Made by a program: the position numbers and the translations under genes
Notes under the pieces: model-generated
Seen by the model: the letters and a program-made list of their open reading frames with translations, nothing else
What the model was told of the DNA's origin: nothing
Database searches by the model: none
Source of the DNA: a virus
Virus record (IMG/VR): IMGVR_UViG_3300036045_000007
Reading direction: 5' to 3' (one strand)
Length of the DNA stretch: 64,000 nt
In this document: piece by piece, positions 1,425 to 56,076 of the stretch
Layout: the number at the start of each line of letters is the position of its first letter
Position numbering within the stretch: the first letter of the stretch is position 1

Positions 1425-2009
1425 ATGGCCGCGCCAACGTATAGTCCGGCAACACCCGGCAATCTCATGGCGGCAATCTCCATTGCTGCATCGAGCGAGC
1501 GAGCGGTGCCGTACAACATCTCCACCAAGTTCGAGGCGCACGTAACCTGTCACTCGCAAATGGGTGGGACAGTCGCGGCGACGACGGGCGTTCGCTTCGA
1601 GGTTTACCAGTACTACGGCTCGACGACTACGACGGCGAGCAGCTCGGCGGGCGCAACCAGTATCAGCGTGGCCAGCGCCACCGGCATCGTCAAGGGCGCG
1701 AGGCTGGGCATTTGGGACGCGACCAACGGCGGCGAAATCCTCGAAGTCAGCAATGTCTCAGGCACGACGCTGACGGTTGCGGCGACGAAGTACAATCACA
1801 CCAACGGCGCCAACGTCTATGTGATCGAGACCACGCCGACCATCACGGTGCAGCCAGGTCCGAACTCGGGCAACTACGCTGCCGACAAGGTTTATTCCAA
1901 GATGATCCAGTTCGGGACGGGGCTCTGGTTTGTGCGCGCCGTGAACCTGGACGCCTCCAATGCACACACCGTCGAACTCAGCGCGGCAACCATTGATGCG
2001 GTAAGCTGA
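1425..2009 (+). CDS. hypothetical structural protein
   Basis: 194-aa ORF, tightly packed. Thr/Ser/Ala-rich beta-type composition with an ISVASATGIVKGARLGIWDATNGGEILEV segment similar to one in 8535-9068. Confidence 0.5.
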   Translation: MAAPTYSPATPGNLMAAISIAASSERAVPYNISTKFEAHVTCHSQMGGTVAATTGVRFEVYQYYGSTTTTASSSAGATSISVASATGIVKGARLGIWDATNGGEILEVSNVSGTTLTVAATKYNHTNGANVYVIETTPTITVQPGPNSGNYAADKVYSKMIQFGTGLWFVRAVNLDASNAHTVELSAATIDAVS

Positions 2010-3190
2010 TGCGGAATGCACTGCCAGGGCACCGTTGGTACACGCTGCCTCCTGCGGGTACGCAGCTCGATGAAGAGATGCTGCGGCATCGGTCGCTTTT
2101 CCAGCCGAACAGCATCTTCGGTACCTACGCGCAGCAGGGGATGCGGAAGTTGGTGGCCTACTGGCCGCTCAACGACGCGAACTCGGCAAGAGGAATACCC
2201 GACATCGTGTCGAAGGGGTTCAAGCACGGTGCCACACTCGGCAGCGGCGCCTCCCTGGTTGGCGGGCTGTACGGCCAGGCCGTGCGGCTCGACGGCACAA
2301 GCAACGGTTATATCGCAGTAGCCAACAGCGCCGAGTTTGACCTCGACACGCAGTCCGTGTGGTTTTGGTTCAAGACGAATCAGTCGGCCAACCCGATCGC
2401 GCTGCTCAGCCGCCACGACACCAATTCCTCGAACGGGTACCTCTTCTGGATCGACTCGAACGCCATCAAGCTGTTGCTCAAGGGTTCGGGCATCGACGCT
2501 CTCACGCTAACCGGGCCATCGGTGCGGGACGGCGCGTGGCACATGGCAGGCGCCGTCATCCGGTCAGACAGTTCGTTCCGCGAATGCCGCCTGTACGTCG
2601 ATGGCGTTCTGGTTGCAAGCGATTCGACCGTGCAGCCGATGAACTTCAACAGCCAAGTCACGCGCTGGGGCAAGTCCATCGACTCGTTCTGGACGGGATT
2701 CAACGGCGACATCATTCCGGGCGGCATCTTCAACACCGAGCTGTCTTTCGCCGATTTCCAGCAGCTTTACTTCGAGCCCTTCTGCCTTTTCAAGCCGCCG
2801 ACCGTTCGGTCATATACGCGGATCATCAGCTCCGAAGTGCTGGACAGCCTAAGTTCGGCCTTGTCCGTAGGATCAACCTTCCTTTCCACGGAGTTTCCTG
2901 ATAGCTTTTCCTCACCGATTTCGGTCGGTGGCGACTTCCAGACCGCCACCATTGAGTCGCCGATCCTGGTGGGCTCGCTCTATGATTTCGCCGTCGCTAT
3001 CGTCGATGAGTTCAGTTCAGCCATCAGCGTCGGCTCGACTTTCGACATTGAACCGGGCTTTAGTTCGGCGATTTCTGTAGGATCAACCTTTGAATCGGAT
3101 GCTACGATAAACCTAGTGGAAGGAATCCTGGTCGGCAGCGTGTTCGACGGAAACAGCGGAGCGTTGGCGTCGAATCGCTACCGGTTTTGA
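2009..3190 (+). CDS. LamG/concanavalin-A-like lectin-domain tail protein with C-terminal SVGSTF repeats
   Basis: YWPLND..GQAVRLDG..WFWFKT..WHMAGAV..RLYVDGVLV pattern typical of the Laminin_G_3 jelly-roll. The last ~120 aa are SS-x-I-x-VGSTF repeats ending NRYRF. ATG overlaps the upstream TGA. Confidence 0.75.
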   Translation: MRNALPGHRWYTLPPAGTQLDEEMLRHRSLFQPNSIFGTYAQQGMRKLVAYWPLNDANSARGIPDIVSKGFKHGATLGSGASLVGGLYGQAVRLDGTSNGYIAVANSAEFDLDTQSVWFWFKTNQSANPIALLSRHDTNSSNGYLFWIDSNAIKLLLKGSGIDALTLTGPSVRDGAWHMAGAVIRSDSSFRECRLYVDGVLVASDSTVQPMNFNSQVTRWGKSIDSFWTGFNGDIIPGGIFNTELSFADFQQLYFEPFCLFKPPTVRSYTRIISSEVLDSLSSALSVGSTFLSTEFPDSFSSPISVGGDFQTATIESPILVGSLYDFAVAIVDEFSSAISVGSTFDIEPGFSSAISVGSTFESDATINLVEGILVGSVFDGNSGALASNRYRF

Positions 3191-3199
3191 GGCACATGG

Positions 3200-6049
3200 A
3201 TGGCCGGACCCGTTCTCTTTGATCGAGTCTACGAGACATCGACGACGACCGGCACTGGCAACATCACCCTCGCCGGTGCAGCGACCGGCTTCCGCGCGTT
3301 CGACGCCGTTGTCTCCAACGGTGAAACGTTCCCATACGTGATCGCTTTACAGAGCGGAACCGAATGGGAAACCGGCATCGGCACCAAGCTCACGTCAACA
3401 ACCTTTAGCCGGTCGGTTATCCAGTCCTCGAACAGCAACAACCTGGTGAATTTCTCATCGGGCACTAAGGACGTGTTCTTAATGCTGTCCTCCGCGCGCA
3501 CGCCAGCGCTAGACAAGGACAACACTTTCACCATTGGTCCGCAGACCATCAACCTCGCGGCGAATGCGCAGAAGGGCCTCATCGTCAAGCGGTTCAGCAG
3601 CGGCCACTCCGCGAACCTGCTTGAGATTCAGAACGAGAGCGGGACCAGCATAGCGAGCGTTTCAGCGGCTGGTGTCTTTACGGGAAACGGCTCTGGCCTT
3701 ACTTCGCTCACCGCTGCCAATATCAGCGCGGGGACCGCTGGGATTTCAATCACCGGCAATGCGGGGACCGTGACCAACGGTGTCTACACGAACGTCGCCA
3801 ACACATTCACGCTCGGCCCGCAACTGCTTCAGAGCGGTGGTGCGTCGAACAAGGTGCTGCTCGTTCGTGGAGCCGCATCCCAATCGGCCAATCTTCAAGA
3901 GTGGCAAAACAGCGGCGGCACATCGCTGGCCCATGTGACTGCCGCTGGCGTGTTCAATGGTGATGGCTCAGGCTTGACCATGTTGCAGCCTGGGAACATC
4001 GTGGCAGGAACGGCAGGCATCTCGATCACCGGCAATGCAGGCACGGTCACGAACGGCGTCTACACCAACGTCGCGAACACGATCACCCAAGGCCCAACGA
4101 CTCTCAACAGCGGCGGCGCCGCACTCGTCAGCCTGATCGTGAAGGGTGCAGCATCGCAGTCAGCGAACTTGCAGGAGTGGCAAAACAGCGGCGGATCGGT
4201 TCTCGCCAACATCACGGCGGCTGGCGTCTTTACCGGGAACGGATCGGGCTTGACCAACATCGCTGGTGCGAGCTTTGGAACGCAGACCGCGAACTTCGTG
4301 TTCGCTGGTCCCACATCAGGCGGCGCCGCTAATCCGACGTTCCGCGCTCTGGTCAGCGACGACATCCCCGCCCTGGCTGCATCAAAGATCACTAGCGGCG
4401 TCTTCCCCGAAGCACGAGGCGGTACAAACCAGTCAACGTACACCCTCGGCGACACGTTGTACGCGAGCGCGGCCAACACTCTGAGCAAGCTCGCGGGCAA
4501 CACGACGACGACGCGACAATTCCTGCGTCAGACCGGCAACGGATCGGTGTCGGCGGCTCCCGCGTGGGATACGCTCGTTGCGGGCGACATTCCGGCGCTG
4601 GCCTACGTGACCAGCGTGGCGATCACCGGACCTTCGATCATCAGTTGGAGCGGATCGCCGATCACCAGCTCGGGAACATTCACCGGCACGCTGGCGAATC
4701 AAAGTGCGAACACGGTCTTGGCCGGGCCGACATCAGGCGGTGCAACGACTCCGACATTCCGAGCGCTGGTCAAGCTCGATCAGCACGCACAGACCGCCTA
4801 CAAGGATGAAGCCAACACGTTTACCCTGGGGCCGAACACGTTCCAGACAGGAGCGGCAGGAAACATCGGCGTCATAATCGCTGCCGCCGCTTCGCAGTCG
4901 GCGAACGTGTTAGAGATCAGGAACTCAGTCGCCGCCGTCATACACTCAGTCGATCCGCAGGGTGCGACCGCGATCAATCTCAAAGCGGACTCGGCGATTG
5001 GTCTAGTCATCAAGCGGAATAGCGCGACACACGCCGCCAACCTGTTCGTCGTGCAAGACGAAAGCGGCGGCACGCTGACAGCTCTGAACGCGGGATGCAC
5101 CGTGTTGACCATGCCCGCGTCATTTGCCATCGGACTTTCGAGCGCGGCGACTGGTTCAAGCGCTCTCGCGATTGGCGGCAGCGCTTCGGCGGCGGGCAAC
5201 AATTCCACGGCATTGGGCAACACTGCGGCGGCGGGCGGCACGAACGCAACGGCCATCGGAGCGACCGCGACGTGCAACCAGAATAACTCGGTATCTATTG
5301 GCACGGCGTCGGTCGTGAACGCAAGCAACTGCGTCGCCATTGGTCGGCAAGCGGCGGCGGGCGGCGCCTCGGCTTCCAGCGCGACGGCGATTGGCGCCAA
5401 CGCGCAGGCGTCCACCGCCAATTCGTTGGCGATTGGCTCCGCGTCGTCCGTCGCGCAGGCTGGCGGAACCGCTCTTGGAGCTAGCGCTGTCGTTCAGGCG
5501 GGGCACACCAACTCGCTTGCCTTGGGCTATCAGGCCAACAGCTTTGCGGCGGCTGAGTTCGTCGTAACCCCAAACGTTGACTTCATAACGTTCTCCGTGC
5601 TATCGAGCACATCCACGAACCGGCAGCGCGGCGAGATTCGAGTCGCCAACGTCGATAACACGGACGCCAGCAGAAAGTACCGCCTGACCCTCAGTGCCTT
5701 TGATACAGCAGCACGTGAAGGTCTTAGAATTGAAGGCAGCGGCACAGCAGCGTTGCTCAGTTTCTTTGGCATCACGGCGGTTGCTCGCGCGAGTGCTTAT
5801 ACCCAAACGTATTCGACCGCTGACAAGACTCATGCGAACCCAACGGCGGTAGCCGTAACGGACAACACAGGCGGCACGGCCAACACGACGCTGCAAAACA
5901 TTGGCGCCGCCTACAGCCAGGCCGAAGTCGCCAACAACTTCGCTGACCTGGCCGCGCAACATAACGCGCTCGTGGCGGACCTCGCTGACCTCAAGCAACT
6001 GTGTAACTCGATGATCGACGATCTGCAAGCATACGGCTTGTTCCAGTAA
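3200..6049 (+). CDS. tail fibre protein
   Basis: 949 aa. Three ~100-aa tandem repeats (ASQSANLQEWQNSGG..AAGVFxGxGSGLT..GTAGISITGNAGTVTNGVYTNVANT) at ~3570-4290. GPTSGGAxxPTFRALV occurs twice. Ala/Gly/Ser SxAxG repeats at ~5100-5530 resemble YadA-head-type fibres. Confidence 0.8.
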   Translation: MAGPVLFDRVYETSTTTGTGNITLAGAATGFRAFDAVVSNGETFPYVIALQSGTEWETGIGTKLTSTTFSRSVIQSSNSNNLVNFSSGTKDVFLMLSSARTPALDKDNTFTIGPQTINLAANAQKGLIVKRFSSGHSANLLEIQNESGTSIASVSAAGVFTGNGSGLTSLTAANISAGTAGISITGNAGTVTNGVYTNVANTFTLGPQLLQSGGASNKVLLVRGAASQSANLQEWQNSGGTSLAHVTAAGVFNGDGSGLTMLQPGNIVAGTAGISITGNAGTVTNGVYTNVANTITQGPTTLNSGGAALVSLIVKGAASQSANLQEWQNSGGSVLANITAAGVFTGNGSGLTNIAGASFGTQTANFVFAGPTSGGAANPTFRALVSDDIPALAASKITSGVFPEARGGTNQSTYTLGDTLYASAANTLSKLAGNTTTTRQFLRQTGNGSVSAAPAWDTLVAGDIPALAYVTSVAITGPSIISWSGSPITSSGTFTGTLANQSANTVLAGPTSGGATTPTFRALVKLDQHAQTAYKDEANTFTLGPNTFQTGAAGNIGVIIAAAASQSANVLEIRNSVAAVIHSVDPQGATAINLKADSAIGLVIKRNSATHAANLFVVQDESGGTLTALNAGCTVLTMPASFAIGLSSAATGSSALAIGGSASAAGNNSTALGNTAAAGGTNATAIGATATCNQNNSVSIGTASVVNASNCVAIGRQAAAGGASASSATAIGANAQASTANSLAIGSASSVAQAGGTALGASAVVQAGHTNSLALGYQANSFAAAEFVVTPNVDFITFSVLSSTSTNRQRGEIRVANVDNTDASRKYRLTLSAFDTAAREGLRIEGSGTAALLSFFGITAVARASAYTQTYSTADKTHANPTAVAVTDNTGGTANTTLQNIGAAYSQAEVANNFADLAAQHNALVADLADLKQLCNSMIDDLQAYGLFQ

Positions 6050-7104: not shown

Positions 7105-8334
7105 ATGGCGAACTTCGACATCATCCTGACGCCCGAAACTGCACCGTCAACGCTGACGGTCATTCCGCACACCAGGCGAACGACCTTCTACGATATGGTC
7201 GAGTACATGCGTCTGCACGCCGGGGCTGCGGTCGGTGCCGAGCATGACAACATCAGCAAGAAGGCGATCTTCGCCGCGCTCCGTGAGTTGACCAACTGCC
7301 ATCTTTGGAGTTACTTCTACAAGTGGGGACGGATCAACACTGTCGCTCCGCAAAACACCGGGACCATCGCAGTCGATGTCGAGGGCGGTGCATTCCCGAA
7401 CCTCGTGACTCTTACCGGCAGCACATGGCCTACCTGGTCATCCTTTGGGCATCTGCGTATCGGCGAAGTCGTCTACAGCGTCAAAGACCGCGTGGACGCA
7501 ACCCGAATCACTCTCGACGCTGAGAGGGCGCCAGCGGCGGACATCGCGTCTGGCACGAGCTACACCCTCTATCGAGACACGTACACGTTGCCCGGCGACT
7601 TCATCAGCAACGACAACGCGATCAACGAATCCAGTTGGGGCGACTTGGAGTACGTGCGTCCCACCGACTGGCTGCGTGCGACCAGGTACTACCAGTCGTC
7701 CTCGACCAGTCCGCGATGGTTTACGATCACCGGCGATCCTGACGTTGCGAATCGGCTGGCGTTGCGAGTGTTCCCTTATCCCGATTCGGCCAAAACCATC
7801 GACTTCCTATACAAGCGGCAACCACGAGAAGTCAACGTCGTCGAGGCGAAGGATGGCACGGTGAGCGTCAGTTCGCTTTCGACGCCGCAGACGGTGACTG
7901 GAACCGGCACGGCGTTCACCGCCAACATGGTGGGCTCCGTGATCCGCTTCTCTGCCCAGGGTGAAACGAATCATCCGACGAGCCTGACTGGTGCGTACCC
8001 GAACGTGATGGAACGCAACATCATCGCCGTGACCAACTCGACGACGTTGACTCTCGACGACGCCGCGAGCGAAACGATTACTGGCGGGAAGTACCGGATC
8101 AGCGACCCCATCGACATCGACGACCAGATCATGTCTGAGGCGTTCTTCCGGTGTTGCGAGAAGAACTATGGATTCATGCGGTCGATGAAGAACGTGGGCG
8201 AGCGGGAAGCGGCCTACGTGCTGGCGATGCGTAAAGCCAAGGAATCCGATCAGCGCGTGTTCGCCGAGCGCGTGGCCGGTGCAGGTGGAACCTACCGGCA
8301 ACCGCTCTCCGACATGCCGATCAACTTCGGGTGA
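7105..8334 (+). CDS. hypothetical structural protein
   Basis: 409-aa ORF, 1-nt spacing from the upstream gene, within the tail block. No motif recognised. Confidence 0.55.
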   Translation: MANFDIILTPETAPSTLTVIPHTRRTTFYDMVEYMRLHAGAAVGAEHDNISKKAIFAALRELTNCHLWSYFYKWGRINTVAPQNTGTIAVDVEGGAFPNLVTLTGSTWPTWSSFGHLRIGEVVYSVKDRVDATRITLDAERAPAADIASGTSYTLYRDTYTLPGDFISNDNAINESSWGDLEYVRPTDWLRATRYYQSSSTSPRWFTITGDPDVANRLALRVFPYPDSAKTIDFLYKRQPREVNVVEAKDGTVSVSSLSTPQTVTGTGTAFTANMVGSVIRFSAQGETNHPTSLTGAYPNVMERNIIAVTNSTTLTLDDAASETITGGKYRISDPIDIDDQIMSEAFFRCCEKNYGFMRSMKNVGEREAAYVLAMRKAKESDQRVFAERVAGAGGTYRQPLSDMPINFG

Positions 8335-8534: not shown

Positions 8535-9068
8535 ATGAGCGACAGCTACCTTGGTCTTGTCTCACTCAGCACTGCGTTGCGTGCTTCGTTCGTTACGCGA
8601 GACGGATCGAACACGCCCAAAGACGCCACGATCGCGCCAGGCTTCCGCATCTACGGGCCGAGCGGTGTGATGAACAACGGCACCGGCACGCTCAGTTTCA
8701 AAGACCCGAGTTCATCTGGCGGCGCGATCACCGGGGCGACGAATGCTTCACCCATCGTCATCACCAGTGCGAACCACAAACTGAGCACCGGCACGCGCGT
8801 CACTATCGCTGGCGTGGGCGGAAACACAGCGGCGAACGGTGACTTTCAGGTCACGGCCATCGACGCTAACACGTTCAGCCTCAATGGAAGCACAGGCAAC
8901 GGAGCGTACACCAGCGGCGGCACATGGCACACGACCGGGCTCTATGACATCAACTACACGCCCACCGGCACCAACGGTTTCGCAGCCGGTCAGAACTATT
9001 CGATGCTCGTTACGTTCGTGGTCAGCGGAGTAACCAAGGCTGACATCCTGACCTTCACGGTGGTATGA
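8535..9068 (+). CDS. hypothetical structural protein
   Basis: 177 aa, GGAGGAG upstream. ITSANHKLSTGTRVTIAGVGGNTAANGDFQVTAIDANTFSL is a small beta-domain common in phage structural proteins. Confidence 0.5.
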   Translation: MSDSYLGLVSLSTALRASFVTRDGSNTPKDATIAPGFRIYGPSGVMNNGTGTLSFKDPSSSGGAITGATNASPIVITSANHKLSTGTRVTIAGVGGNTAANGDFQVTAIDANTFSLNGSTGNGAYTSGGTWHTTGLYDINYTPTGTNGFAAGQNYSMLVTFVVSGVTKADILTFTVV

Positions 9069-9688
9069 TGGCGCGGAAACTGGCTCAGTACAGCGAGATT
9101 CATTCGGAGTTGAAGTCGGGAGACGTGATCGCGTTTGGCGGCAAGGGCCAGCTCTCTCACTGGATCAAGCTCTTCACGAAGTCGCCGGTGTCGCACGTTG
9201 CCGTCGTCTTCGAGTCGAACCTCATGGTTCCTCGACAGATGGACGGATTCGGCGTTCCCGACGACACGCTCAACTGGCTTTGTGAGAGCACAACGGGCGG
9301 CGTCCAGTTTCGGCGGGTTAGCCAGGTTGTCATGGACTATGACGGCGACGTGTGGGTTTTGCCGTTGAGCGATGCGGCGCGGGCTGGCATGGACCTGGAT
9401 GCTTTTCACGTCTTCCTGCTGACCCACAAGGGCAAGCCATACGACGACGTGCAGTTGACCATGTTCCCGCTCGGCACCAACCGAGAAGACTTCCGGGCAT
9501 TCTTTTGCTCAGAGCTTGTCGCCGGAGCGCACGAGGCCGGTAAAGTTGTGCCAGAGCTGAACGCATCGAACACTGGACCGATTGACATTTGCCGGTTCAG
9601 CATCTACAAGCCGGACTACTATCAGTTGAAGGGCGACATCGACATCCCTGGCTACAACACGACATTCGCAGGCGGGTGGGGAACGTGA
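9065..9688 (+). CDS. permuted papain-fold hydrolase (YiiX/C92-like, NlpC/P60 superfamily)
   Basis: His-before-Cys order (SPVSHVAVVF ... FFCSELVAGAH), typical of permuted papain-like amidases. Lies in the tail block. ATGA overlap with the upstream gene. Confidence 0.6.
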   Translation: MMARKLAQYSEIHSELKSGDVIAFGGKGQLSHWIKLFTKSPVSHVAVVFESNLMVPRQMDGFGVPDDTLNWLCESTTGGVQFRRVSQVVMDYDGDVWVLPLSDAARAGMDLDAFHVFLLTHKGKPYDDVQLTMFPLGTNREDFRAFFCSELVAGAHEAGKVVPELNASNTGPIDICRFSIYKPDYYQLKGDIDIPGYNTTFAGGWGT

Positions 9689-10881: not shown

Positions 10882-10944
10882 AAAAGATGGGAGCCTTCAG
10901 CACTCGCGACCGAAGGCCCCCGCGTGCGGAGGTCGGAGGGTATT

Positions 10945-12966
10945 ATGCCAAACTCCTTCGCGGAAAGCCAGAGTGGTCTGCTGCTGATCGTCAGCGGCTT
11001 TGATCCCGTGCTGCGCTGGGACGGTCTCAAGCCGAGCGCCGAAGTCGCCGGGATGTCGGCTCCGACCGTCGCTCCGACCATTGCTGCCAGCGGGACCGGC
11101 ACCATCAACGGTTCCTACACAGCCTACCTGCGATTCGTCGATGATCTTGGCAACGTCTCGAACCTGTCGCCGATCTCGAACACACTGACGGCCACGCTCG
11201 CCAGCACGATCACGTACACCAACGTCCAAATCCCCACCGATCCGAAGGTGAAGCGACGGCAGCTCCTTCGTTCGACCGCTGGCCAGGCGGCGACCTACTA
11301 CGTGGACGTTGATTCGACGGACATCACGGCGACGACGTTCCAGAGCACCAAGACCGACTCGCAGCTCAACGTCGGCGAGGCAGTTCCCATCCTCGACCCA
11401 TCGGATAACTCGATCTTCGCAAACCGGCACAATCCGCCGCCCAACTACAAGATTGCCATTGTCAATCACCTGGGCCGCATGTTTATGGCTGGGGAGCTGG
11501 ACTATACCCAAGGCTCGTGCAAGGTGACGTTCGGCTCGGCGACGGTCCAGGGCGTTGGCACGGAATGGCTCAATGCGCTGGTTGGCCGGTTGATCTATGT
11601 TGTCGGAGCAAGGCAGTCGTATCAGATCGCAACCATTGACGAGACGAATCAGACCCTGACGCTGACAGAGGTCTACCAGGATGCAACGGATTACTTGGCG
11701 CCCTACGCCATTCGCCCGGCGCCAGCAGAGCGCAAGCTCGTTTACTATTCCGAGGCGGGTCTGCCTGAGAGCTGGCCACCGACCAACGCGCTGTCCGTGC
11801 AGGACGACGGCGACGAGATCACCGGGCTCATGGTGAAGGGTAGCTTCGTCTACATCGTCGAGCGGCGCCACGTGTACCGCTTCACGTTTCAGGAAGACCC
11901 GGCGCTCGACGGCTTCCTCTTTCTCTCGTCGAAGCGGGGCTGTTTGAATCCTCGCTCCTTCGTCGTCGTCGAGGACATCGCCTACATGCTCGATGAGCAG
12001 GGCATCCATGCGTTCAGCGGCGCCGACGACAAACCGATCAGTACCACGATCCAAGACGTGTTCCGCCCGAGCGACTCACCGTACCGGATCAACTGGAAGG
12101 AGAAACGCTTCTTCCACTGTTGTCACTTCCCGCAGCAAGAGACGATTCGCTGGTACGTGTCGATGGCCGGTGATTACCTCCCGCAGCACGCCATCGCGTA
12201 CAACTATCGGCTCGAACGCTGGTGGATCGAAGAGTATTCGAGGCCGATTGGCAGCTCATGCACCGGGTTGTACCTCGGCCAGCAGCAAGTCTTCCTGGGA
12301 AGCGACGGGCGATCCGTCATGGCACTGTGGCAAGGCTTGCTCGACGGTCCCCAAGAGGAAGGTGCGACCGTTCGCGGCACGGTCACATCGTGCGGTCTGA
12401 CTTCGATCACCGATGCGACGGCGACCTTTCCATCAACCGGCGTCGTCAACAATCCGGTCGTGATCGCGGAGGGGCGTGGCGCCGGTCAGCGCCGCAACGT
12501 GTCGAGTGTCAGCGGGCAAACGATCTACGTCGATGAACCGTGGCTGATCCTGCCGGACACAACGAGCGTCTACCAGCTCGGCGGTATCCAATGGCACTAT
12601 ACCTCAGCGTGGTTCCGCTTCGTTCTGAGCGAGCAGTACATCGAACGCCGCGTGGCTACGCTGGTGGAGCCGACGCTGAACGACGCACGCATGACGTTGC
12701 AAGTCTTCGTTGACTTCGCGAACACGCCGATCAGTTGGCAGGCGAGCATGACAAGCGAAGAAGGCGGCGGCGTACAGAGCACTGCGGGCGGCACGGACTT
12801 GCTGATCGACATGAAGAAGACGAGCGGTTACGCACAAAAGCGAATGGCTGGCAACCGCGAGTTCTTCACTGACGGGCCCCGCTACACACAGCTCAAGCTC
12901 TCTGGTGTCACGAGCAGGGATGCACAGCGGGTGTATTTCGTGGCGTTCGATGCGGTGACTCAGTAA
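10945..12966 (+). CDS. large tail/nozzle-type structural protein
   Basis: 673 aa from the ATG at 10945 (GGAGGG 5 nt upstream; track start 10924 is an upstream alternative codon). Beta-rich. Function from position only. Confidence 0.55.
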   Translation: MPNSFAESQSGLLLIVSGFDPVLRWDGLKPSAEVAGMSAPTVAPTIAASGTGTINGSYTAYLRFVDDLGNVSNLSPISNTLTATLASTITYTNVQIPTDPKVKRRQLLRSTAGQAATYYVDVDSTDITATTFQSTKTDSQLNVGEAVPILDPSDNSIFANRHNPPPNYKIAIVNHLGRMFMAGELDYTQGSCKVTFGSATVQGVGTEWLNALVGRLIYVVGARQSYQIATIDETNQTLTLTEVYQDATDYLAPYAIRPAPAERKLVYYSEAGLPESWPPTNALSVQDDGDEITGLMVKGSFVYIVERRHVYRFTFQEDPALDGFLFLSSKRGCLNPRSFVVVEDIAYMLDEQGIHAFSGADDKPISTTIQDVFRPSDSPYRINWKEKRFFHCCHFPQQETIRWYVSMAGDYLPQHAIAYNYRLERWWIEEYSRPIGSSCTGLYLGQQQVFLGSDGRSVMALWQGLLDGPQEEGATVRGTVTSCGLTSITDATATFPSTGVVNNPVVIAEGRGAGQRRNVSSVSGQTIYVDEPWLILPDTTSVYQLGGIQWHYTSAWFRFVLSEQYIERRVATLVEPTLNDARMTLQVFVDFANTPISWQASMTSEEGGGVQSTAGGTDLLIDMKKTSGYAQKRMAGNREFFTDGPRYTQLKLSGVTSRDAQRVYFVAFDAVTQ

Positions 12967-20018: not shown

Positions 20019-20200
20019 CGCAAATCGGACCGTATCAACCAAGGCAATGTCCTCCGGGCTGCTTGGCTTGCATTGTCGGCCTGATCGGTGCGCTACTTAG
20101 CTGTGCGTCGATGCCGGTGTTTGTGATCCTTCAATTCCTCGAACATCGCCGCAAAAGGAAGGCTGAGAAATGGCAACCTACGAAGTCGGCAAACGAATGA
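20015..20200 (+). CDS. small membrane protein
   Basis: 61 aa with one hydrophobic helix (CLACIVGLIGALLSCASMPVFVILQFL) and a basic tail. ATGA overlap upstream. Overlaps the next gene by 31 nt. Confidence 0.4.
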   Translation: MTQIGPYQPRQCPPGCLACIVGLIGALLSCASMPVFVILQFLEHRRKRKAEKWQPTKSANE

Positions 20201-21528
20201 AGTACGCCCGCGCGATCGACGTTCCTTGGGAGAACGTCGGGCCAGGCGACAATGTGCTGATCCACGCACTGCCGAACGGCGAAGCGTACCGCGACAAGAT
20301 TCAACTATTCCACCAGGGCACGGTCGGCAATCCGATCAAGGTGCTCGGTGTGCCTGATCCGACGACTGGTAAGCTCCCGCGATTCGACGCTGATGGCGCC
20401 GAAGAATGGAAGGGATCGAAATACTGGCACCCTGATCCTGCCAAGGGCGGCGTCATCACGTTCTCGCCACTCGGCGCCGCTGGCTTGCGCCCCAAGCACA
20501 TCATCCTCGATGGCATCGAGACGCACGGCTGCGTTCGTGAGAAGAAGTTCACCAACGCCAATGGCGAGAAGACCGGGTGGGGTTGGGCCTGCGCTGGCGT
20601 GGCGTTCCAAAAGTCCGAGAACTGCCAGATGTCCAACTGCTTCAGCCACGACAACGAGAACGGTGTGTTCGGCAAGAGCTACGGATACACCGCGCTCGAC
20701 CTACTCAACATCGTGCTCGACGGCAACGTGTTCCAAGGCAACGGCATCGTCGGCTCGGTCCACTATCACAACACTTATCTCGAAGGGGTCGGGACAACTT
20801 ATCGCCGCAACAAGTACGGCAAGCTCAAGACTGGCTCGGCTGGCGCCACGCTCAAGGATCGGAGTGCTGGTGCGGTGATCGCGTTCAACCACATCTCGGG
20901 CAGCGGGCTCCTGCTCGATCTCGTCGAGCCGGAAGACGGCATCGGGACGTTCGTCCAAACGCCGCAGTGGGGAAGTACCTGGGTGTACGGCAACGCCATC
21001 ATCAACCCCCAATGGAATTGGGCGAACTCGATGATCCACTTCGGCTTCGACGGCGATTGGCAGAATCGACAGCTCGACCTTTACTTCTGGTTCAACACGC
21101 TGGTCAGCATCAACGACCGTGACGCGGGCGGTCGATGGTATACCGTGATCTTCAAGCACGAGGGGCGAACGATCTATCCGTACAACAACGTGTTCCAGAG
21201 CTACTCGCCCGATCCAAAGCACTGGTCTGGTGACTTCATCTGGTCCTACTCATCGGGCGGGGAGTTCGACATCGGCGTGAATTACGTGCCGCTCTGGTTG
21301 CAGAAGGGCAACTCGGTGTGGAAGGGCGAAGGCAACTTCGTCGCTGCCAACGATCCGGGGTTTGTCAACCAGTTCACCGGCAACTACAACATCGCCGAGG
21401 ACTCAATCTGCAAAGGCAAAGCGAGCCGCCTGCCTCGTAACCTGCAACGTCCTCGGCTCCAGTTCGACTTCGACAAGGGTGCATGGGCGCACCGGCAGGC
21501 GATCCGCAGCCTGGGCGTCATCGAGTAA
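20170..21528 (+). CDS. right-handed beta-helix (pectate-lyase-fold) protein, putative tailspike/depolymerase
   Basis: 452 aa. Repeated N-x-x-x-N/G turns (NCQMSNCFSHDNENGVFG, LDGNVFQGNGIVGSVHYHNTYLEG) typical of parallel beta-helix polysaccharide lyases. Confidence 0.6.
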   Translation: MATYEVGKRMKYARAIDVPWENVGPGDNVLIHALPNGEAYRDKIQLFHQGTVGNPIKVLGVPDPTTGKLPRFDADGAEEWKGSKYWHPDPAKGGVITFSPLGAAGLRPKHIILDGIETHGCVREKKFTNANGEKTGWGWACAGVAFQKSENCQMSNCFSHDNENGVFGKSYGYTALDLLNIVLDGNVFQGNGIVGSVHYHNTYLEGVGTTYRRNKYGKLKTGSAGATLKDRSAGAVIAFNHISGSGLLLDLVEPEDGIGTFVQTPQWGSTWVYGNAIINPQWNWANSMIHFGFDGDWQNRQLDLYFWFNTLVSINDRDAGGRWYTVIFKHEGRTIYPYNNVFQSYSPDPKHWSGDFIWSYSSGGEFDIGVNYVPLWLQKGNSVWKGEGNFVAANDPGFVNQFTGNYNIAEDSICKGKASRLPRNLQRPRLQFDFDKGAWAHRQAIRSLGVIE

Positions 21529-21531: not shown

Positions 21532-21714
21532 ATGCCATTGAAGAAGGGATCGAGCGACGAGACCGTAAGCTCAAACGTCTCCGAACTACGCCACTCTGGA
21601 TACCCGCAGAAGCAAGCCGTCGCCATCGCGATGAACGAGGCAGGCCGATCCAGGGTGGGAGTTCGGAAGCGGAAGAAGAAGAAAGTCGGTGTCAAAAAAA
21701 GTGGCGACAGTTAG
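21532..21714 (+). CDS. small basic protein
   Basis: 60 aa: [37 protein letters not shown] plus a Lys-rich tail. Resembles a widespread small QAVAIA-motif family (from memory, unverified). Confidence 0.5.
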
Positions 21715-21743
21715 TTGACAGTCACCCTTCGCCCGATTACAAT
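21715..21743 (+). promoter_or_regulatory. sigma70-type promoter (TTGACA-17-TACAAT) of the moron
   Basis: TTGACA 21715-21720, 17-nt spacer, TACAAT 21738-21743. Preceded by AAAGTGGCGACAGTT (box at 21703-21712). Confidence 0.6.
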
Positions 21744-21784
21744 TTTTGCCATAGGAGCGTGTCCCTTCGGAGGGCATGGGTTCA

Positions 21785-22204
21785 ATGGCGAACTCTGGTT
21801 GCTGCATTCGCGTTGCAGTCGGGAGCTTGCTGCTCACCGCAGCATGGCTCAAGTACACCAGCAATTCCCACGTTGACGTTCTCATCATCAAGGCCGAGGC
21901 TATGCTCGGCATCTGGCTAATTTCCGGGTGGGCATATCGCTACGCCTGGACAATCACCATCTTGCTCTTCCTTGGCGCCATCCCGCTGAACGTCCATGCG
22001 ATGTTCACCGGCGAACCGTGCGCCTGTTTCGGCAACGTAGTGCGGCTTCAGCCCTGGGTCACAGGCGTTCTGGACCTGGGCGTGATCGTGTTGTTGGGTG
22101 TCGCCAGTCCAAAGGCAAAGGGAGTTCGCAATGAGAACGGATCGAGTGCTGTGGAGTCTTGGTGTCGCGTTGCTCACATTAAGCGTCATCGCCGCGCCGA
22201 GTGA
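21785..22204 (+). CDS. MauE/DoxX-like 4-TM membrane protein
   Basis: Four hydrophobic helices with a CACFG motif between TM3 and TM4. Start is 21776 or 21785 (GGAGGG upstream). The last 74 nt overlap the next gene. Confidence 0.5.
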   Translation: MANSGCCIRVAVGSLLLTAAWLKYTSNSHVDVLIIKAEAMLGIWLISGWAYRYAWTITILLFLGAIPLNVHAMFTGEPCACFGNVVRLQPWVTGVLDLGVIVLLGVASPKAKGVRNENGSSAVESWCRVAHIKRHRRAE

Positions 22205-22415
22205 TGCCGCGCCTGTCCAGTACAAAGTCGCCGAAACGCAACGCTGCGACGGCGACTCGGTATGCAATCCATCGACGACGGACCAGTGCTTCCTGAAGTA
22301 CAACAGCAACCCCCCATGCACTGGCGGGAATTGCAGCCAAACGACAAAAAAGACGGAGTGTGGTAAATGTAAGTGCAAGGACGACGGTTCCCAATGTCTT
22401 TGTCGTTTGAACTAG
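22131..22415 (+). CDS. secreted cysteine-rich mini-protein (10 Cys)
   Basis: ATG at 22131 after AAGGGAG. Signal peptide MRTDRVLWSLGVALLTLSVIAAPSDA. Mature ~68 aa with 10 Cys, including ECGKCKCKDDGSQCLC. Confidence 0.55.
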   Translation: MRTDRVLWSLGVALLTLSVIAAPSDAAPVQYKVAETQRCDGDSVCNPSTTDQCFLKYNSNPPCTGGNCSQTTKKTECGKCKCKDDGSQCLCRLN

Positions 22416-22422
22416 GAGCATC

Positions 22423-23352
22423 ATGAAGAAGACAGCGTTGGTAGTCGCGGCGGCTCTGCTCGGTGGCGGCGCCGACTGGCAGGATGCAGCCAAGGGATGG
22501 CAGGCGTATCGAGAGGGAGCACGGAAGCTCCAAGGATCGTACACCTGGGACAGCGTAAAGTCCGGGCCCGAGCAGGGCTGGCGAACCAGGCGTAATTACC
22601 AGATCAGGCAACGCAGCGGGTGTGCCCTGTTCATGGAGCAGTGCGTCACCAATAACAACGAACCTGATCCGGTCGGTTGGGTGTGGGTGCTCAACGAGAA
22701 CTATGGCTTCGAGCTGAAGCGCACTCAGTGCGATGGTCCGTGGACGCTCCATTCGATGGACGACAAGCTGAGTGACGGCGTGCAATTCGACCTGGCCGGT
22801 GCCCCGGCAACGCGGGTTGATGCCGTCTCTCTTTGCCCGGTGAGCCTAGCCAGCATCGTGCCGATCAACCGGCAGTCACAGATTCACACCATCGACGCCG
22901 ACCCCGCATTCTCGTTGGTGAGCATGGCGCCGGAAGGTGATCTGGTGAGAGTGACGTTCAGCTACGGCGATCAAGTCGTGCGCGGCGGCTGGATGCTCTG
23001 CGATCCGAAGCGCCTGTGGATCATTCGTGAGTGTGAGACGCGGATGGCGTGGGGCGACACGACCGGCACTGTCCGTGTGACAATGGACTATGACGACGGG
23101 TCGTTCCCGATCCTGCGGCACATGGCCAAACTCAAGCCGCCGACCAAGCCTCCCGGCTGGACCGGCGAGGATCACTACAACTTCGATCTGAACCAGGCCA
23201 AGGCGTCTGAAGATGAGTTCACGTTACCAGCGTTCGGCTTCGCCGAGCTTCCTCAGTTCGAGAAGCCGAGCCGCTGGTACTTGTGGGTTGGCGGGGTGGG
23301 CGTTGCGTGCCTGCTCGCGGCACTCATTTGGCGTTGGCTGGCGACTCGTTGA
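22423..23352 (+). CDS. secreted protein with C-terminal membrane anchor
   Basis: 309 aa. Signal peptide MKKTALVVAAALLGGGA. C-terminal FTLPAFGFAELPQFEKPSRWYLWVGGVGVACLLAALIW anchor. TAGGAG upstream. Confidence 0.6.
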   Translation: MKKTALVVAAALLGGGADWQDAAKGWQAYREGARKLQGSYTWDSVKSGPEQGWRTRRNYQIRQRSGCALFMEQCVTNNNEPDPVGWVWVLNENYGFELKRTQCDGPWTLHSMDDKLSDGVQFDLAGAPATRVDAVSLCPVSLASIVPINRQSQIHTIDADPAFSLVSMAPEGDLVRVTFSYGDQVVRGGWMLCDPKRLWIIRECETRMAWGDTTGTVRVTMDYDDGSFPILRHMAKLKPPTKPPGWTGEDHYNFDLNQAKASEDEFTLPAFGFAELPQFEKPSRWYLWVGGVGVACLLAALIWRWLATR

Positions 23353-24626: not shown

Positions 24627-24654
24627 ATTATAACGTCAGCGTTATGATTGTCAA
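24627..24654 (-). promoter_or_regulatory. consensus sigma70 promoter (TTGACA-16-TATAAT) with overlapping palindromic operator
   Basis: Minus strand reads TTGACAATCATAACGCTGACGTTATAAT. The palindrome ATAACG-N4-CGTTAT (24630-24645) covers the spacer and -10. Confidence 0.6.
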
Positions 24655-24659: not shown

Positions 24660-24902
24660 CTATCGGTTTTTTTCGCGTTTTTTCCGAGATTTTTTCTCTT
24701 GCTGTAACTCGGTGCGGCGCTTGAAGTTGGGATTGCCGACCGGGAGTTTCACGAACGAATCGATATCGCTGGTGGAAAAATACAGGTCGCGCCCACGCAA
24801 CGCGGGGGTCAGTCTGCCGTCCATGACCAGCCGCCGCACGCGGCCAGGGGTGACGTTGAGCCGCGCGGCGGCCTGAGCGGTGGTGAGTAGATTAGTAGTC
24901 AT
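24660..24902 (-). CDS. excisionase/MerR-type HTH DNA-binding protein (candidate regulator)
   Basis: LLTTAQAAARLNVTPGRVRRLVMDGRL helix-turn-helix. ATG at 24902 lies only 7 nt after the -10 of promoter 24910-24937, so the mRNA would be leaderless. The track start 24932 would lie upstream of that TSS. Confidence 0.6.
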   Translation of the reverse strand: MTTNLLTTAQAAARLNVTPGRVRRLVMDGRLTPALRGRDLYFSTSDIDSFVKLPVGNPNFKRRTELQQEKKSRKKREKNR

Positions 24903-24909
24903 TCCAGCA

Positions 24910-24937
24910 ATTGTAACGCTGGCGTTAACCATGTCAA
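24910..24937 (-). promoter_or_regulatory. sigma70 promoter (TTGACA-16-TACAAT) with second copy of the operator
   Basis: Minus strand reads TTGACATGGTTAACGCCAGCGTTACAAT. The palindrome TAACG-N4-CGTTA is at 24914-24927. Confidence 0.6.
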
Positions 24938-27461: not shown

Positions 27462-28120
27462 GCGACCCTCCGAGGAATAGTTAGGTGTCGATTCCGCAAG
27501 CCGCTGCTGACCAGCTCGTCGAAGCCGTCGGTGTGCAGGTACAACATGCCGCTGAACGTCTGGCATCCGTCGCAGACTTCGAGCGTGGCGCCGCTGTGCC
27601 GATCACCCGCACATAACTTCTTCGCCATCCAGGGCACCCACTCTCGAATGAATGGCGTGGTATACCGTGGCATCTGCAACGCCAGTTCGAGTGCGGTCTC
27701 GTTGAGGACCGGGATGAATCCCTCGTCCATCGCAACCGAAACCATGTGGTAGGTGTTGTAACCCAGGCGTTGGGTGAAGTGGCGATAGCCATGCGGCGAC
27801 CGCACCAGATCGGCGCCGAGGTACTTCTTCTTGCCTTTGAATCCGTCGTGCGTGTAACGCTCGACCCGGAACGGTCCGTCGAAGTGAGCGAAGAAGTTGT
27901 GGTCCCCGCTCAGGTGAGCACGTGTCGCTTTGATGCTGGTCTCCGGTCCGGCGACGGACAGGAGCATGATCTGTCGGTTGAACACGGAGATGGAGTCGGA
28001 CCTCAGTTTGAAGCTCGACTGCTCGCCGTTGACGGTGAGGGCATGGACGTTCCAGTCAACTCCTGTGCCCGCAACAGGAATTCCGCCGAACACGCTCGGC
28101 GAATGCGCATGATCGACCAT
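27458..28120 (-). CDS. hypothetical protein
   Basis: 220-aa ORF, no domain recognised. The first 118 nt overlap the recombinase 3' end, so the true start may be internal. Confidence 0.45.
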   Translation of the reverse strand: MVDHAHSPSVFGGIPVAGTGVDWNVHALTVNGEQSSFKLRSDSISVFNRQIMLLSVAGPETSIKATRAHLSGDHNFFAHFDGPFRVERYTHDGFKGKKKYLGADLVRSPHGYRHFTQRLGYNTYHMVSVAMDEGFIPVLNETALELALQMPRYTTPFIREWVPWMAKKLCAGDRHSGATLEVCDGCQTFSGMLYLHTDGFDELVSSGLRNRHLTIPRRVA

Positions 28121-28791
28121 TCTTCCCCCTTCGTGGTTAATAGGTTGTGATCCCGAAAGTGCTTGTGGATTTCAGCCCAACTGAATCCGGCCAAGTGTTG
28201 TTGCGCGATGTACGCCATCTGCTGGCGTTCGATTTCGTTCCGAATCCTGATCTTCGGTTTGCCAGGATTTCTGCGGCGCCAAAGGAAGCCGTAGCCAGCG
28301 TGTCCGTTGACCGCGTACCCTTGTGCGCTTGCCCATCGCTTGGCTTCTCGAATGCGCTCGGCGATGCGGCCCCTCTCGAACTCGGCGATGCACGCCAGCA
28401 CGTTCTCAATCAGCGTTTGGATGTAGTCAGGTATATCGCCCTCGAAGAAGGGCATGTCGAGCATGTGAACTTTGATGTCTCTCTTGGCCCACGACGACCG
28501 CATGACGAGGAAGTCTTCCAGCCTGCGGAAGCCACGGTCGAGCTTCATCACGATTACATGATCGCCATTCTCCAATCGCTTGTTGAGCGCTGCACCCGCC
28601 TTGCGTTCGAGGAACTGATACTTCGCAGCGGACACCTTGTCGATGAAGAAGTCACCCCACAGCAGCTTGCTCGCCCACTTGTCGGAGTAGTAGGTGAGGA
28701 TGCGATCCTTCTGGACTTCGATGCCGTTGATCTGCCGGTCCGTCGATTCACGCACGTACCCGTAGGCGATTGGCTTTCGATCTTCGCTCAT
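28003..28791 (-). CDS. small serine recombinase (resolvase/invertase family)
   Basis: N-terminal YGYVRESTDRQ catalytic-Ser motif. Resolvase-core pattern (GDHVIVMKLDRGFR, IAEFERGRIAERI). C-terminal HTH (GFSWAEIHKHF). Confidence 0.8.
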   Translation of the reverse strand: MSEDRKPIAYGYVRESTDRQINGIEVQKDRILTYYSDKWASKLLWGDFFIDKVSAAKYQFLERKAGAALNKRLENGDHVIVMKLDRGFRRLEDFLVMRSSWAKRDIKVHMLDMPFFEGDIPDYIQTLIENVLACIAEFERGRIAERIREAKRWASAQGYAVNGHAGYGFLWRRRNPGKPKIRIRNEIERQQMAYIAQQHLAGFSWAEIHKHFRDHNLLTTKGEEWSIMRIRRACSAEFLLRAQELTGTSMPSPSTASSRASN

Positions 28792-33938: not shown

Positions 33939-35118
<1,180 letters not shown>

Positions 35119-35122
<4 letters not shown>

Positions 35123-50185: not shown

Positions 50186-51268
50186 ATGGCTGATTGGAGC
50201 CGTATCGTCAACACGACCATCAAGAATTACATTCGAGAGGTCGAAATTGACGTGTTGCGGAATCGAAAAGTCCCGGCAATGTTGAAGGCAAAGGGCCGCA
50301 TCACCTTCAACTGGTCAGGGGACGGCATGGATTGGAAAGTGCGCTTCAAGCGTGCTCCCATGATCGGCTACGCCGACACCGATACTTTGACGTTCGCGCG
50401 TCTGAATCGGTGGAAGACCGCGCAGCTCGATTACCGTGGCTATGCAACCACGGACAGCATGACCAAGCAAGAGCGGCTGAAGAACAAGTCCACCGAAGCG
50501 ATTGTGAAGGTCTACGATGAGATCACTCGAAATCTCGTCGAGGACATGGAAGATCAATTCGGCGACGAGTTCTACATTGACGGCAACGCTGCTGGAAACT
50601 CGAAGCGACTGCACGGTATTGAGTCGTTCTTGGGCGATGGCGGCGTAAGCTCAGGCGGCTTCATCGCTCTGCCATCGGATGAATACGCTGGTATCAACAC
50701 GGCTCTCGGCACTTACGGTGGAACGTGGACAGGTACTTCGAGCAACTGGCCTAAGGCGACGGGCGATGGCCACTTCGACTTCTGGTCGCCGTTGCTCGTT
50801 GACTACACCGACACCGCTTGGGCCGCGACAACCAAGACGTGGCCGAATACCTGCGAAGAGGCGATGCGGTTTGGCCTCATCTACTCGCGCAAAAACAAGA
50901 GCAAGCGCGGTGCGGTTGACTTCATCATCCTTGATGAAGAGCTGTACCGTCAGTTCTTGGACAAGATCAGCACGAAGGAACGTATCATCGTTGATCGAGG
51001 CGACAAGAACAGTCTCGTCTCCCTCGGCTTCACCGATGTCACGAACTTCGACGGCGCCGAAGTGACCACGGAGTACGGTCTCCCGGCCAACATCGGCTAC
51101 GGATGGAACATCGACCAGATGGAACTTCGGTCGCAACAGGGCCAGTTGTTCGTCCCTGAAGGGCCCGATTATGACATCGCGACGAAGAGCTGGCGATTCT
51201 CAATCGACTTTTTCGGCAACATGGTCTTCCGTCCGCGTTACTTCCTGAAGTTCAAGGCGTACACCTAA
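50186..51268 (+). CDS. major capsid protein
   Basis: 360 aa, AAAGGAG upstream, follows the scaffold-like gene and is followed by a hairpin. Size and N-terminal pattern fit phage coat proteins. No search was run. Confidence 0.65.
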   Translation: MADWSRIVNTTIKNYIREVEIDVLRNRKVPAMLKAKGRITFNWSGDGMDWKVRFKRAPMIGYADTDTLTFARLNRWKTAQLDYRGYATTDSMTKQERLKNKSTEAIVKVYDEITRNLVEDMEDQFGDEFYIDGNAAGNSKRLHGIESFLGDGGVSSGGFIALPSDEYAGINTALGTYGGTWTGTSSNWPKATGDGHFDFWSPLLVDYTDTAWAATTKTWPNTCEEAMRFGLIYSRKNKSKRGAVDFIILDEELYRQFLDKISTKERIIVDRGDKNSLVSLGFTDVTNFDGAEVTTEYGLPANIGYGWNIDQMELRSQQGQLFVPEGPDYDIATKSWRFSIDFFGNMVFRPRYFLKFKAYT

Positions 51269-56054: not shown

Positions 56055-56076
56055 AAGCGTAACCAATGGGGGTTGC

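Follow-up and report, generated by a model that had tools for sequence, protein, structure and literature searches.

The viral record IMGVR_UViG_3300036045_000007 was studied as one window, meaning the whole stretch of 64,000 nucleotides (nt), and the element in question is a group of three consecutive genes on its (+) strand, here termed genes i, ii, and iii, which together with the promoter ahead of them occupy positions 21715–23352. A first-pass annotation had read these genes as a self-contained maker/cargo pair, in which a MauE-like membrane protein would serve a secreted cysteine-rich peptide, with an anchored exported protein alongside. The analysis described here supports that reading and extends it: gene i matches the MauE family, the cysteine framework of gene ii is conserved among its homologues, and the same three genes recur together elsewhere, collinear and all on one strand, at no fewer than 11 loci of Planctomycetota (one of them with an unread gap at the peptide position).

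The promoter and the three gene products

The cassette is preceded by a sigma-70-type promoter at 21715–21743 (+), composed of a −35 box (TTGACA, 21715–21720), a 17-nt spacer, and a −10 box (TACAAT, 21738–21743). It matches the consensus at 11 of 12 positions, which bears out the textbook promoter described in the first-pass annotation. A search of both strands of the 64-kb window for sites scoring at least 11/12 against the sigma-70 consensus returned four, while 100 mononucleotide shuffles of the window, used as the null model, yielded 0.23 such sites on average and never more than 2. All four near-consensus sites lie at plausible starts of transcription units. Since such sites are rare in the window and precede gene blocks, the cassette promoter is unlikely to be a chance match. 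Its −35 box abuts the stop codon of a 60-amino-acid (aa) open reading frame (ORF; 21532–21714, +) that matches the widespread family phrog_2423 (E 5e-16), whose members are small phage proteins with no assigned function, and the genes upstream are of virion type, placing the promoter right after the virion block as had been proposed. The three ORFs are tightly packed. Genes i and ii overlap by the 74 nt originally reported (22131–22204, +), the non-conserved tail of gene i running over the signal-peptide codons of gene ii; genes ii and iii are 7 nt apart; and good ribosome-binding sites are present on both ii and iii.

Gene i (21785–22204, +; an alternative ATG lies at 21776) encodes a minimal MauE-family protein of 139 aa with four transmembrane (TM) helices and a basic tail predicted to be cytoplasmic. 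A Shine-Dalgarno sequence, GGAGGG (21769–21774, +), can be read 10 nt before the ATG at 21785, and the 5′ untranslated region of the gene was found to fold no better than shuffled sequences. The TM segments and signal peptides of all three gene products were judged by inspection and hydropathy, which gave four hydrophobic segments for gene i and placed the motif CACFG (residues 79–83) between the third and the fourth, exactly as first described. The K/R-rich C-terminal tail points to a cytoplasmic C terminus and so, by the positive-inside rule, to a periplasmic TM3–TM4 loop. The protein had been called MauE/DoxX-type on the strength of this motif, and the MauE half of the label stood: gene i scored 27.9 bits against Pfam PF07291 (gathering threshold 27, E 3.3e-6, profile positions 50–124 of 128), carries the Lys, Glu, and CXC-FG residues of the family, and also matched the N-terminal part of the NCBIfam model BT_3928. 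The DoxX half fell away, as MauE was the sole Pfam match at E ≤ 1; there was no match to PF07681, and DoxX membership was rejected because no DoxX model was matched.

MauE first became known as a protein that the small, disulfide-dense subunit of methylamine dehydrogenase needs in order to mature. A March 2026 bioRxiv preprint (10.64898/2026.03.05.709764) describes it as a DsbB-like generalist found widely among bacteria, representatives from two phyla having restored motility and PhoA activity in E. coli dsbB mutants. In that work a CXC motif in the periplasmic TM3–TM4 loop was essential for complementation, X being usually Gly or Ala and the motif being followed by a highly conserved Phe-Gly, and a predicted quinone site was lined by a Lys in TM1 and a Glu in TM2 (10.64898/2026.03.05.709764). 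The association of MauE with disulfide-rich proteins, which the first-pass annotation had invoked, thus has experimental backing for the enzyme family. In gene i, the codons at 22019–22033 (+) read C79-A-C81-F-G and, going by sequence and the preprint motif, form the putative CXC-FG active site in the TM3–TM4 loop, while its Lys in TM1 (AAWLK) and its Glu in TM2 (KAEAML) align with those of all four cellular cassette MauE proteins (4/4). Every feature of MauE that can be looked for in a sequence is present, the profile score passing narrowly, and the gene i product may be considered a putative quinone-linked disulfide generator by analogy with the family.

The likeness to MauE extends to the four TM helices, the CXC-FG of the TM3–TM4 loop, the Lys of TM1, and the Glu of TM2, and also to genetic linkage with what is predicted to be a small, disulfide-dense exported client. 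The differences are that gene i is very short (139 aa), barely above the Pfam cut-off, and phage-encoded, and that neither a mau cluster nor a MauD or other thioredoxin-like partner accompanies it. Its relatives in the cellular cassettes described below score 33–45 bits on PF07291 and are fused to an immunoglobulin (Ig)-like domain, DUF1573, rather than to a thioredoxin.

Gene ii (22131–22415, +) starts with an ATG 7 nt after AGGGAG and encodes 94 aa. A signal peptide of 26 aa, MRTDRVLWSLGVALLTLSVIAAPSDA (22131–22208, +), has the n-h-c layout and is predicted to be cleaved between SDA and the following Ala, the small residues at −3 and −1 being kept in the aligned homologues. The mature part (22209–22415 with the stop codon, +) comprises 68 aa with 10 Cys at a spacing of 5-7-9-4-8-2-1-6-1, carries a net charge of +2, and ends in ...ECGKCKCKDDGSQCLCRLN. 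Inspection and hydropathy therefore agree with the earlier description of a precursor with a clean signal peptide and a 10-Cys mature part of about 68 aa. It is the sole Cys-dense exported ORF in the window. No match was obtained in Pfam, NCBIfam, PHROG, or PADLOC, and a word-based homology search returned no relative. A Cys-rich profile run against PDB sequences gave weak matches to epidermal growth factor (EGF)-like proteins at E ≥ 0.03; since these were non-significant, an EGF-like label was not adopted.

Homologues of the peptide were recovered next to homologues of gene iii. The one at locus L003 (loci are numbered where they need to be told apart) is a secreted peptide of 96 aa with 35% identity to gene ii and with all 10 mature Cys aligned (10/10). 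Across the phage peptide and 14 homologues, the 15 mature parts are 51–76 aa long and follow a small-x-small cleavage site, except in L014 (VLG). Most of the 15 carry the motif C-x2-3-C-x-C-x6-17-C-x-C placed 1–5 residues from the C-terminal end, with variants in L008, L015, L021, and L022, so that Cys spacing is conserved, as the motif or a close variant of it, throughout the 14 homologues. The number of Cys residues is even in 15/15 peptides (10 in eleven, 12 in two, 8 in two), an outcome expected by chance about once in 30,000, and even counts are compatible with every Cys being bound in a disulfide. The phage peptide is cationic (+2, and Lys-rich around CGKCKCK) vs 14/14 cellular homologues that are anionic (−1 to −11).

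It could be that gene ii instead encodes a periplasmic metal-binding mini-protein with a metallothionein-like Cys cluster, its redox state being kept by the MauE-like protein, especially as the CxC and CxxC near its C terminus (CGKCKCK...CLC) resemble metal–thiolate motifs. However, the even Cys count in all 15 peptides, the demonstrated disulfide formation by the linked enzyme family, the absence of conserved His or Met ligands from the peptides, and the location in an oxidising periplasm make this explanation very improbable, and it was rejected.

Gene iii (22423–23352, +) starts 5 nt after AGGAG and encodes 309 aa. AlphaFold2 and hydropathy assign a signal peptide to residues ~1–17, a periplasmic half-barrel to ~19–271, and a TM anchor to 284–308 (23272–23346), the last helix being followed by Arg; the signal peptide and C-terminal anchor noted in the first-pass annotation are therefore both present. 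When only a 2-sequence alignment was supplied to AlphaFold2, the model was unusable (predicted local distance difference test score, pLDDT, 36.6). A 46-sequence alignment gave a model with a pLDDT of 90.1 and a predicted template-modelling score (pTM) of 0.84, and Foldseek compared this with the PDB, returning LolA3, DUF1329, an outer-membrane lipoprotein-sorting domain, LolA, LprF/LprG, MucB/RseB, and LolB. The best match was Porphyromonas gingivalis LolA3 (E 3e-7, probability 1.0), with a target-normalised TM-score of 0.5–0.56. The predicted fold is an unclosed antiparallel beta-barrel, or half-barrel, of the LolA/LolB/RseB type, and on this model gene iii would be a type-I inner-membrane protein that, after cleavage of its signal peptide, displays the LolA-like half-barrel in the periplasm. 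RseB and MucB illustrate that a LolA-type fold can bind a periplasmic partner protein as well as lipids.

What gene iii has in common with the LolA/LolB/LprG/RseB–MucB superfamily is this predicted fold. It differs in its C-terminal TM anchor, where the others are soluble or lipidated, in being paired with the gene for a Cys-rich peptide, and in sequence-level membership: gene iii and 46 family members gave no Pfam, NCBIfam, or PDB sequence match, and none belonged by sequence to LolA, LolB, RseB, DUF1329, or DUF4367. There was likewise no PHROG or PADLOC match for gene iii and no credible analogue among the viral structures of BFVD. The family itself is large. A profile run against 1.84 billion representative proteins (50% identity clusters) gave 2,096 hits at E ≤ 1e-3 and 976 at E ≤ 1e-10, nearly all of them full length at 330–360 aa, and the ten members that were looked up were all annotated as "hypothetical protein" or nameless (10/10). 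The cassette would in this way define a very large family of predicted LolA fold, with more than 2,000 clusters at 50% identity, that matches nothing in Pfam or NCBIfam. The word search returned one relative of gene iii (36% identity), and the contig encoding it opens with the tail of a Cys-rich ORF, CGGCKCNNIGGTECACQM up to its stop, which resembles the end of gene ii. The C-terminal family consensus EFTLSAFG(F/L)PEP-x8-12-WYLW-TM-RR, for which the phage sequence at 23206–23352 reads AEL in place of PEP, resembles a sorting signal. A PEP-CTERM assignment was rejected, however, as the PEP lies 8–12 residues before the TM helix and no NCBIfam match was found in 46 members.

Related cassettes in planctomycete genomes

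Scanning a genome collection with a 2-sequence alignment of gene iii returned no loci, and a 10-sequence alignment returned 18. Seventeen of these are in Planctomycetota metagenome-assembled genomes (MAGs), comprising Gemmataceae, other Gemmatales, Planctomycetaceae, Pirellulales, Isosphaeraceae, and unclassified members, and one is a 3.3-kb contig labelled Methylococcaceae; within this collection, then, the gene iii family is all but confined to Planctomycetota. Another 4 loci came from exact look-ups of as many additional gene iii representatives. Note that the synteny counts below describe a pattern-seeded sample rather than an exhaustive survey, that the loci are mostly MAGs and short contigs annotated by local hidden Markov models, and that several are cut at a contig edge and were left unscored. 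One candidate, L005, proved to be a false positive owing to a match to an alpha/beta hydrolase.

The order MauE (with DUF1573), Cys-rich peptide, gene iii family, all on one strand, was found in ten loci (L003, L007, L013, L014, L015, L022, L023, L024, L025, and L026). A Joint Genome Institute (JGI) contig fits the same order in that MauE, a gene iii homologue, and a DUF1559-type gene were called on it, with an unread gap of 650 nt at the peptide position; this contig brings the total to the figure of at least 11 given above. Counted by itself, a peptide gene lies directly upstream of the gene iii homologue in 14 loci, and in L012 a gene for a 6-Cys peptide lies downstream instead. The best described example, L003, is a 9.7-kb metagenome contig whose oxidase gene encodes a 289-aa fusion of MauE and DUF1573 with the motif CGCFG (Pfam MauE 1.8e-11, DUF1573 4.5e-9). 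The flank of L003 carries genes for an extracytoplasmic function (ECF) sigma factor and a Ser/Thr kinase with DUF1583, and its context is that of a planctomycete chromosome.

These loci bear on two simpler explanations of the phage genes. According to the first, gene i is a general auxiliary oxidase that boosts oxidative folding of exported host or phage proteins, with genes ii and iii as unrelated passengers. MauE is indeed a widespread generalist (10.64898/2026.03.05.709764), and the phage version is a stand-alone minimal enzyme. Against this, the three families keep their adjacency and order across at least 11 independent loci, genes i and ii share 74 nt, and gene ii is the only Cys-dense exported ORF that the window encodes, so that the explanation was rejected as improbable. 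The second is a lysis cassette, with gene i as holin and genes ii and iii as spanin-like proteins or lysis accessories. Lysis genes often sit after tail genes, and the position at the end of the virion block, like the succession of a small multi-TM protein, an overlapping small exported protein, and a membrane-anchored protein, would suit such a function. Gene i, however, is a MauE homologue with intact catalytic motifs, and homologues of all three genes lie in chromosomal operons beside pilin-like genes rather than in prophage lysis modules. There is no adjacent endolysin and no PHROG lysis match; gene iii has a predicted LolA fold with a C-terminal anchor, in contrast to the N-terminally anchored coiled coils of i-spanins; and gene ii has no lipobox. 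A role in lysis was rejected as the least credible of all the explanations weighed.

The cellular cassettes are larger than the phage trio. In nearly every case a fifth TM helix joins their oxidase to a CxC-bearing DUF1573 Ig-like domain, as in L003 (6146–7015), L007 (2546–3454), L013 (1415–2311), L015 (2696–3580), L022 (3333–4238), L023 (3474–4349), and L026 (170–970), and extra single-pass DUF1573 proteins are common. DUF1573 is also known as a selenoprotein with a UGC motif, and because this version exists the motif of the domain is likely to be redox-active. By analogy with VKOR–thioredoxin fusions, the MauE–DUF1573 protein may be a fusion of a disulfide generator to its carrier, with an Ig domain in place of thioredoxin. 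A further conserved ORF of ~76 aa, absent from the phage, directly follows the LolA-like gene in L024 (3176–3406), L026 (2541–2771), and L001 (1606–1827); the L024 copy is a weak match to the DUF1573 part of the local model, and the L001 copy has no Pfam match.

The gene iii homologue is followed by a prepilin-like gene with N_methyl and DUF1559/SBP_bac_10 domains in 13/18 loci of the genome scan and in all 4 of the extra loci (4/4). Examples are found at L006 1095–2090, L008 3435–4307, L009 1930–2901, L015 6471–7412, L022 6144–7085, L023 6260–7195, and L024 3680–4570, and in L008 the stop of the gene iii homologue overlaps the start of the DUF1559 gene. DUF1559 is the most expanded paralogue group of the Planctomycetales, with 68 copies in P. 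limnophila and about 91–100 in T. immobilis, and its function is unassigned. As there are only ~91–100 such genes in a T. immobilis genome, the adjacency is far above chance. Genes for GT-C (PMT-like) glycosyltransferases were present in 3 cellular loci.

Such linkage speaks for a role in the envelope or in fibres more than for a classic bacteriocin, and a third explanation was built on it, namely that the cassette is an accessory module that matures or decorates DUF1559 fibres and that the phage copy interferes with them or re-tools them, for example to block a receptor (superinfection exclusion), with no toxin/immunity function. It shares its biochemistry with the explanation preferred below and differs in role only. 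The DUF1559 gene directly downstream in 13/18 and 4/4 loci, the GT-C glycosyltransferases in three loci, the extra DUF1573 Ig-like proteins inside the cassettes, and the anionic character of the cellular peptides all favour it. On the other hand, the phage has neither a DUF1559 nor a DUF1573 gene, the function of DUF1559 is unassigned, no exclusion or defence model of PADLOC was matched, and the rapid co-diversification of peptide and partner (below) fits both readings. An accessory role of this kind was judged possible, at perhaps one chance in a few.

No DUF1559, DUF1573, or other family of the cellular cassettes was found in the window, the phage having the three core genes. Judged by this comparison, the phage trio is a trimmed copy of the larger cellular cassette, and traces of the trimming may be visible at the junction of genes i and ii. 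Gene i ends after TM4 in a non-conserved, basic tail of 30 aa (22105–22204), at a point where the cellular homologues continue into TM5 and DUF1573. The cellular fusions of 290–300 aa end ~20–110 nt before the peptide gene, except that the ORFs of L014 overlap by 23 nt. From these alignments, the 74-nt overlap in the phage is probably the scar of a deletion that removed TM5 and DUF1573 from an ancestral fusion.

Divergence of the peptide and its neighbour, and proposed function

Comparison of L003 with L007 revealed an uneven pattern of divergence along the cassette. Identity was 78–81% for the MauE–DUF1573 protein and 76% for the signal peptide, and fell to 40% for the mature peptide and 43% for the gene iii homologue. 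L010 carries two tandem pairs of peptide and LolA-like genes (6–272 and 278–1357; 1450–1785 and 1919–2944), in which the signal peptides are 97% identical, the mature peptides 46%, and the gene iii homologues 34%; the comparison does not apply to MauE there. A conserved export signal, a hypervariable mature part held in a Cys frame, and a neighbour that diverges along with it are what diversifying selection on a matched pair would be expected to produce. This suggests that the peptide and the LolA-like protein are a cognate pair, either effector and protector or ligand and receptor, the pattern being compatible with both. A partial tandem duplication, involving the 3′ end of DUF1573 and the peptide gene, was also seen in L007 (3564–3839 and 4080–4639); in the first peptide copy the signal peptide seems to have gone out of frame, owing either to a frameshift or to an error of assembly.

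Taken together, the preferred interpretation of these data is that an oxidase, its client, and a cognate partner of LolA fold are combined in one promoter-driven unit, and for this biochemical core the balance of the evidence is favourable, if not decisively so. The three genes would be transcribed as a single unit, acquired from the chromosome of a planctomycete and expressed from a phage sigma-70 promoter. The gene ii product would be exported by Sec and its signal peptide cleaved after SDA, and its 10 Cys would be paired into five disulfides in the periplasm through the action of gene i. By analogy, gene i would use its periplasmic Cys-Ala-Cys loop and pass electrons to quinone, acting on the peptide directly or via carrier proteins of the host. 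The half-barrel of gene iii would then serve as cognate binding partner of the folded peptide. Because, in cells, both members of the peptide/partner pair diversify together while the oxidase is conserved, they behave as would an effector and the protector or receptor matched to it.

For the phage, the cassette would most likely provide a conversion function for the infected or lysogenic cell, the role and the timing of expression both being proposals. Along the lines of the first-pass annotation, it may be a moron expressed in lysogens and acting as toxin, receptor blocker, or exclusion device. Two options were considered: an exported effector rich in disulfides and accompanied by an immunity protein, on the model of sublancin/BdbB/SunI in prophage SPbeta, or a remodelling of the envelope or of pilus-like fibres that excludes other phages. 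A bacteriocin-like effector/immunity role and a fibre/envelope role appear roughly equal in likelihood.

A bolder proposal takes the trio as the core of unrecognised planctomycetal envelope modules, in which a hypervariable five-disulfide mini-protein, a co-evolving receptor of LolA fold, and DUF1559 prepilin-like proteins are served by a novel MauE–DUF1573 disulfide relay, and of which the phage has stolen a minimal allele to reprogramme the cell surface (exclusion, or discrimination between kin and competitors). The mini-protein could in that event be a cargo, a cap, or a specificity determinant of the fibre. We regard this as speculative and somewhat less probable even than the accessory role in fibre maturation described above.

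Several observations weigh against the combination of oxidase, client, and partner, or against its use by the phage as a conversion function. The MauE match of gene i is borderline at 27.9 vs 27 bits, and gene i, in contrast to nearly all oxidases of the cellular cassettes, has no DUF1573 domain and so might be a crippled remnant; nor does the window encode any thioredoxin-like or DUF1573 carrier. The cellular cassettes are tightly linked to DUF1559 genes and sometimes to GT-C glycosyltransferases, and their peptides are anionic, whereas most membrane-active antimicrobial peptides are not. Beyond 23352 no terminator-like site was detected, and the GC content of the cassette (0.57–0.60, with 0.55–0.66 across the window) shows no compositional contrast with the phage. 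Finally, searches of IMG/VR and INPHARED brought up no other phage that carries the cassette. The IMG/VR viral contigs gave no relatives of the cassette proteins, whether these were queried singly or as a family alignment; tblastn gave no match for genes i and iii among INPHARED phages and none for gene iii among PLSDB plasmids; and the word search with gene i returned only matches to itself. Relatives of the flanking phage genes were not found in IMG/VR or INPHARED either.

A dedicated oxidative-folding module for a Cys-dense client is a known kind of system, and the cellular cassette that lies behind this one appears to be undescribed; a literature search found no paper that mentions MauE together with Planctomycetes. 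The present arrangement is similar to that of MauE with the methylamine dehydrogenase small subunit and to that of BdbB with sublancin, and differs in the architecture of the oxidase, in its Sec-dependent 10-Cys peptide, in the partner of predicted LolA fold, and in the link to prepilin-like genes. A close parallel is the sublancin locus of Bacillus subtilis prophage SPbeta (sunA-sunT-bdbA-sunS-bdbB with sunI; PMC6391423), which is likewise phage-borne and codes for a secreted peptide with Cys residues, a thiol-disulfide oxidase of the membrane dedicated to it (BdbB is needed for the sublancin disulfides, a task predicted for gene i), and a membrane-anchored protein (SunI is the protector, a role predicted for gene iii). 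In SPbeta, however, the oxidase is of DsbB type rather than MauE type, and the peptide has a double-glycine leader, an ATP-binding cassette (ABC) transporter/peptidase, and a glycosyltransferase, in contrast to the Sec signal peptide and the absence of a transporter from the cassette studied here. SunI is small and N-terminally anchored, whereas gene iii is a protein of ~300 aa with a predicted LolA fold. An antimicrobial role for gene ii, with cognate immunity, would be supported indirectly by the co-diversification of the peptide with its neighbour and by the tandem pairs. If it is borne out, the cassette would add a Gram-negative, Sec-dependent analogue of sublancin/BdbB/SunI.

Should gene i work as proposed, it would be, as far as could be found, the first phage-encoded disulfide generator of MauE type, and, at 139 aa, a naturally minimal member of an enzyme class whose ability to replace DsbB has only recently been demonstrated. 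The cassette would also offer the MauE enzyme a concrete client and partner. DUF1559, at ~40 to 100 or more copies per genome, is a long-standing puzzle to which three linked genes, open to heterologous expression, would give a small, testable entry point.

Position of the cassette in the phage genome

The block upstream of the cassette is of virion type and includes a beta-helix protein (20170–21528), an internal-virion or tail-like protein (10924–12966), fibre-like proteins (2009–6049 and 7105–8334), and a weak portal match at 39–818. The block downstream lies on the opposite strand, is convergent with the cassette, and encodes an excisionase-like helix-turn-helix (HTH) protein, an SNF2 helicase, a serine recombinase, a DUF6094 methyltransferase, and DUF932. 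The 235-nt spacer between the convergent units was found to fold no better than shuffled sequences. In having its own strong promoter, in lying between the virion block and a convergent early/regulatory block, and in encoding envelope proteins unrelated to virion assembly, the cassette is similar to the bor and lom morons of lambda. It differs from them in that no terminator was detected, in that there is no compositional contrast, and in being a three-gene operon with clear cellular homologues. A planctomycete host is inferred, the taxonomy of the homologues being the sole basis.

The other three near-consensus promoter sites are all on the (−) strand, at 24627–24654 (12/12), 24910–24937 (11/12), and ~35095–35122 (11/12), and are probably early or regulatory phage promoters. 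The first two of these flank the excisionase-like HTH gene (24660–24932). The serine recombinase (28003–28791, −) is small and may be the integrase. Additional phage functions were recognized in a ClpP/crotonase-like protein (9065–9688, +; phrog_1128), a match to a major head protein (50186–51268, +; phrog_9953), and a RecE-like exonuclease (56026–57036, +). An independent Logan assembly (L002) was base-identical over 18.7 kb.

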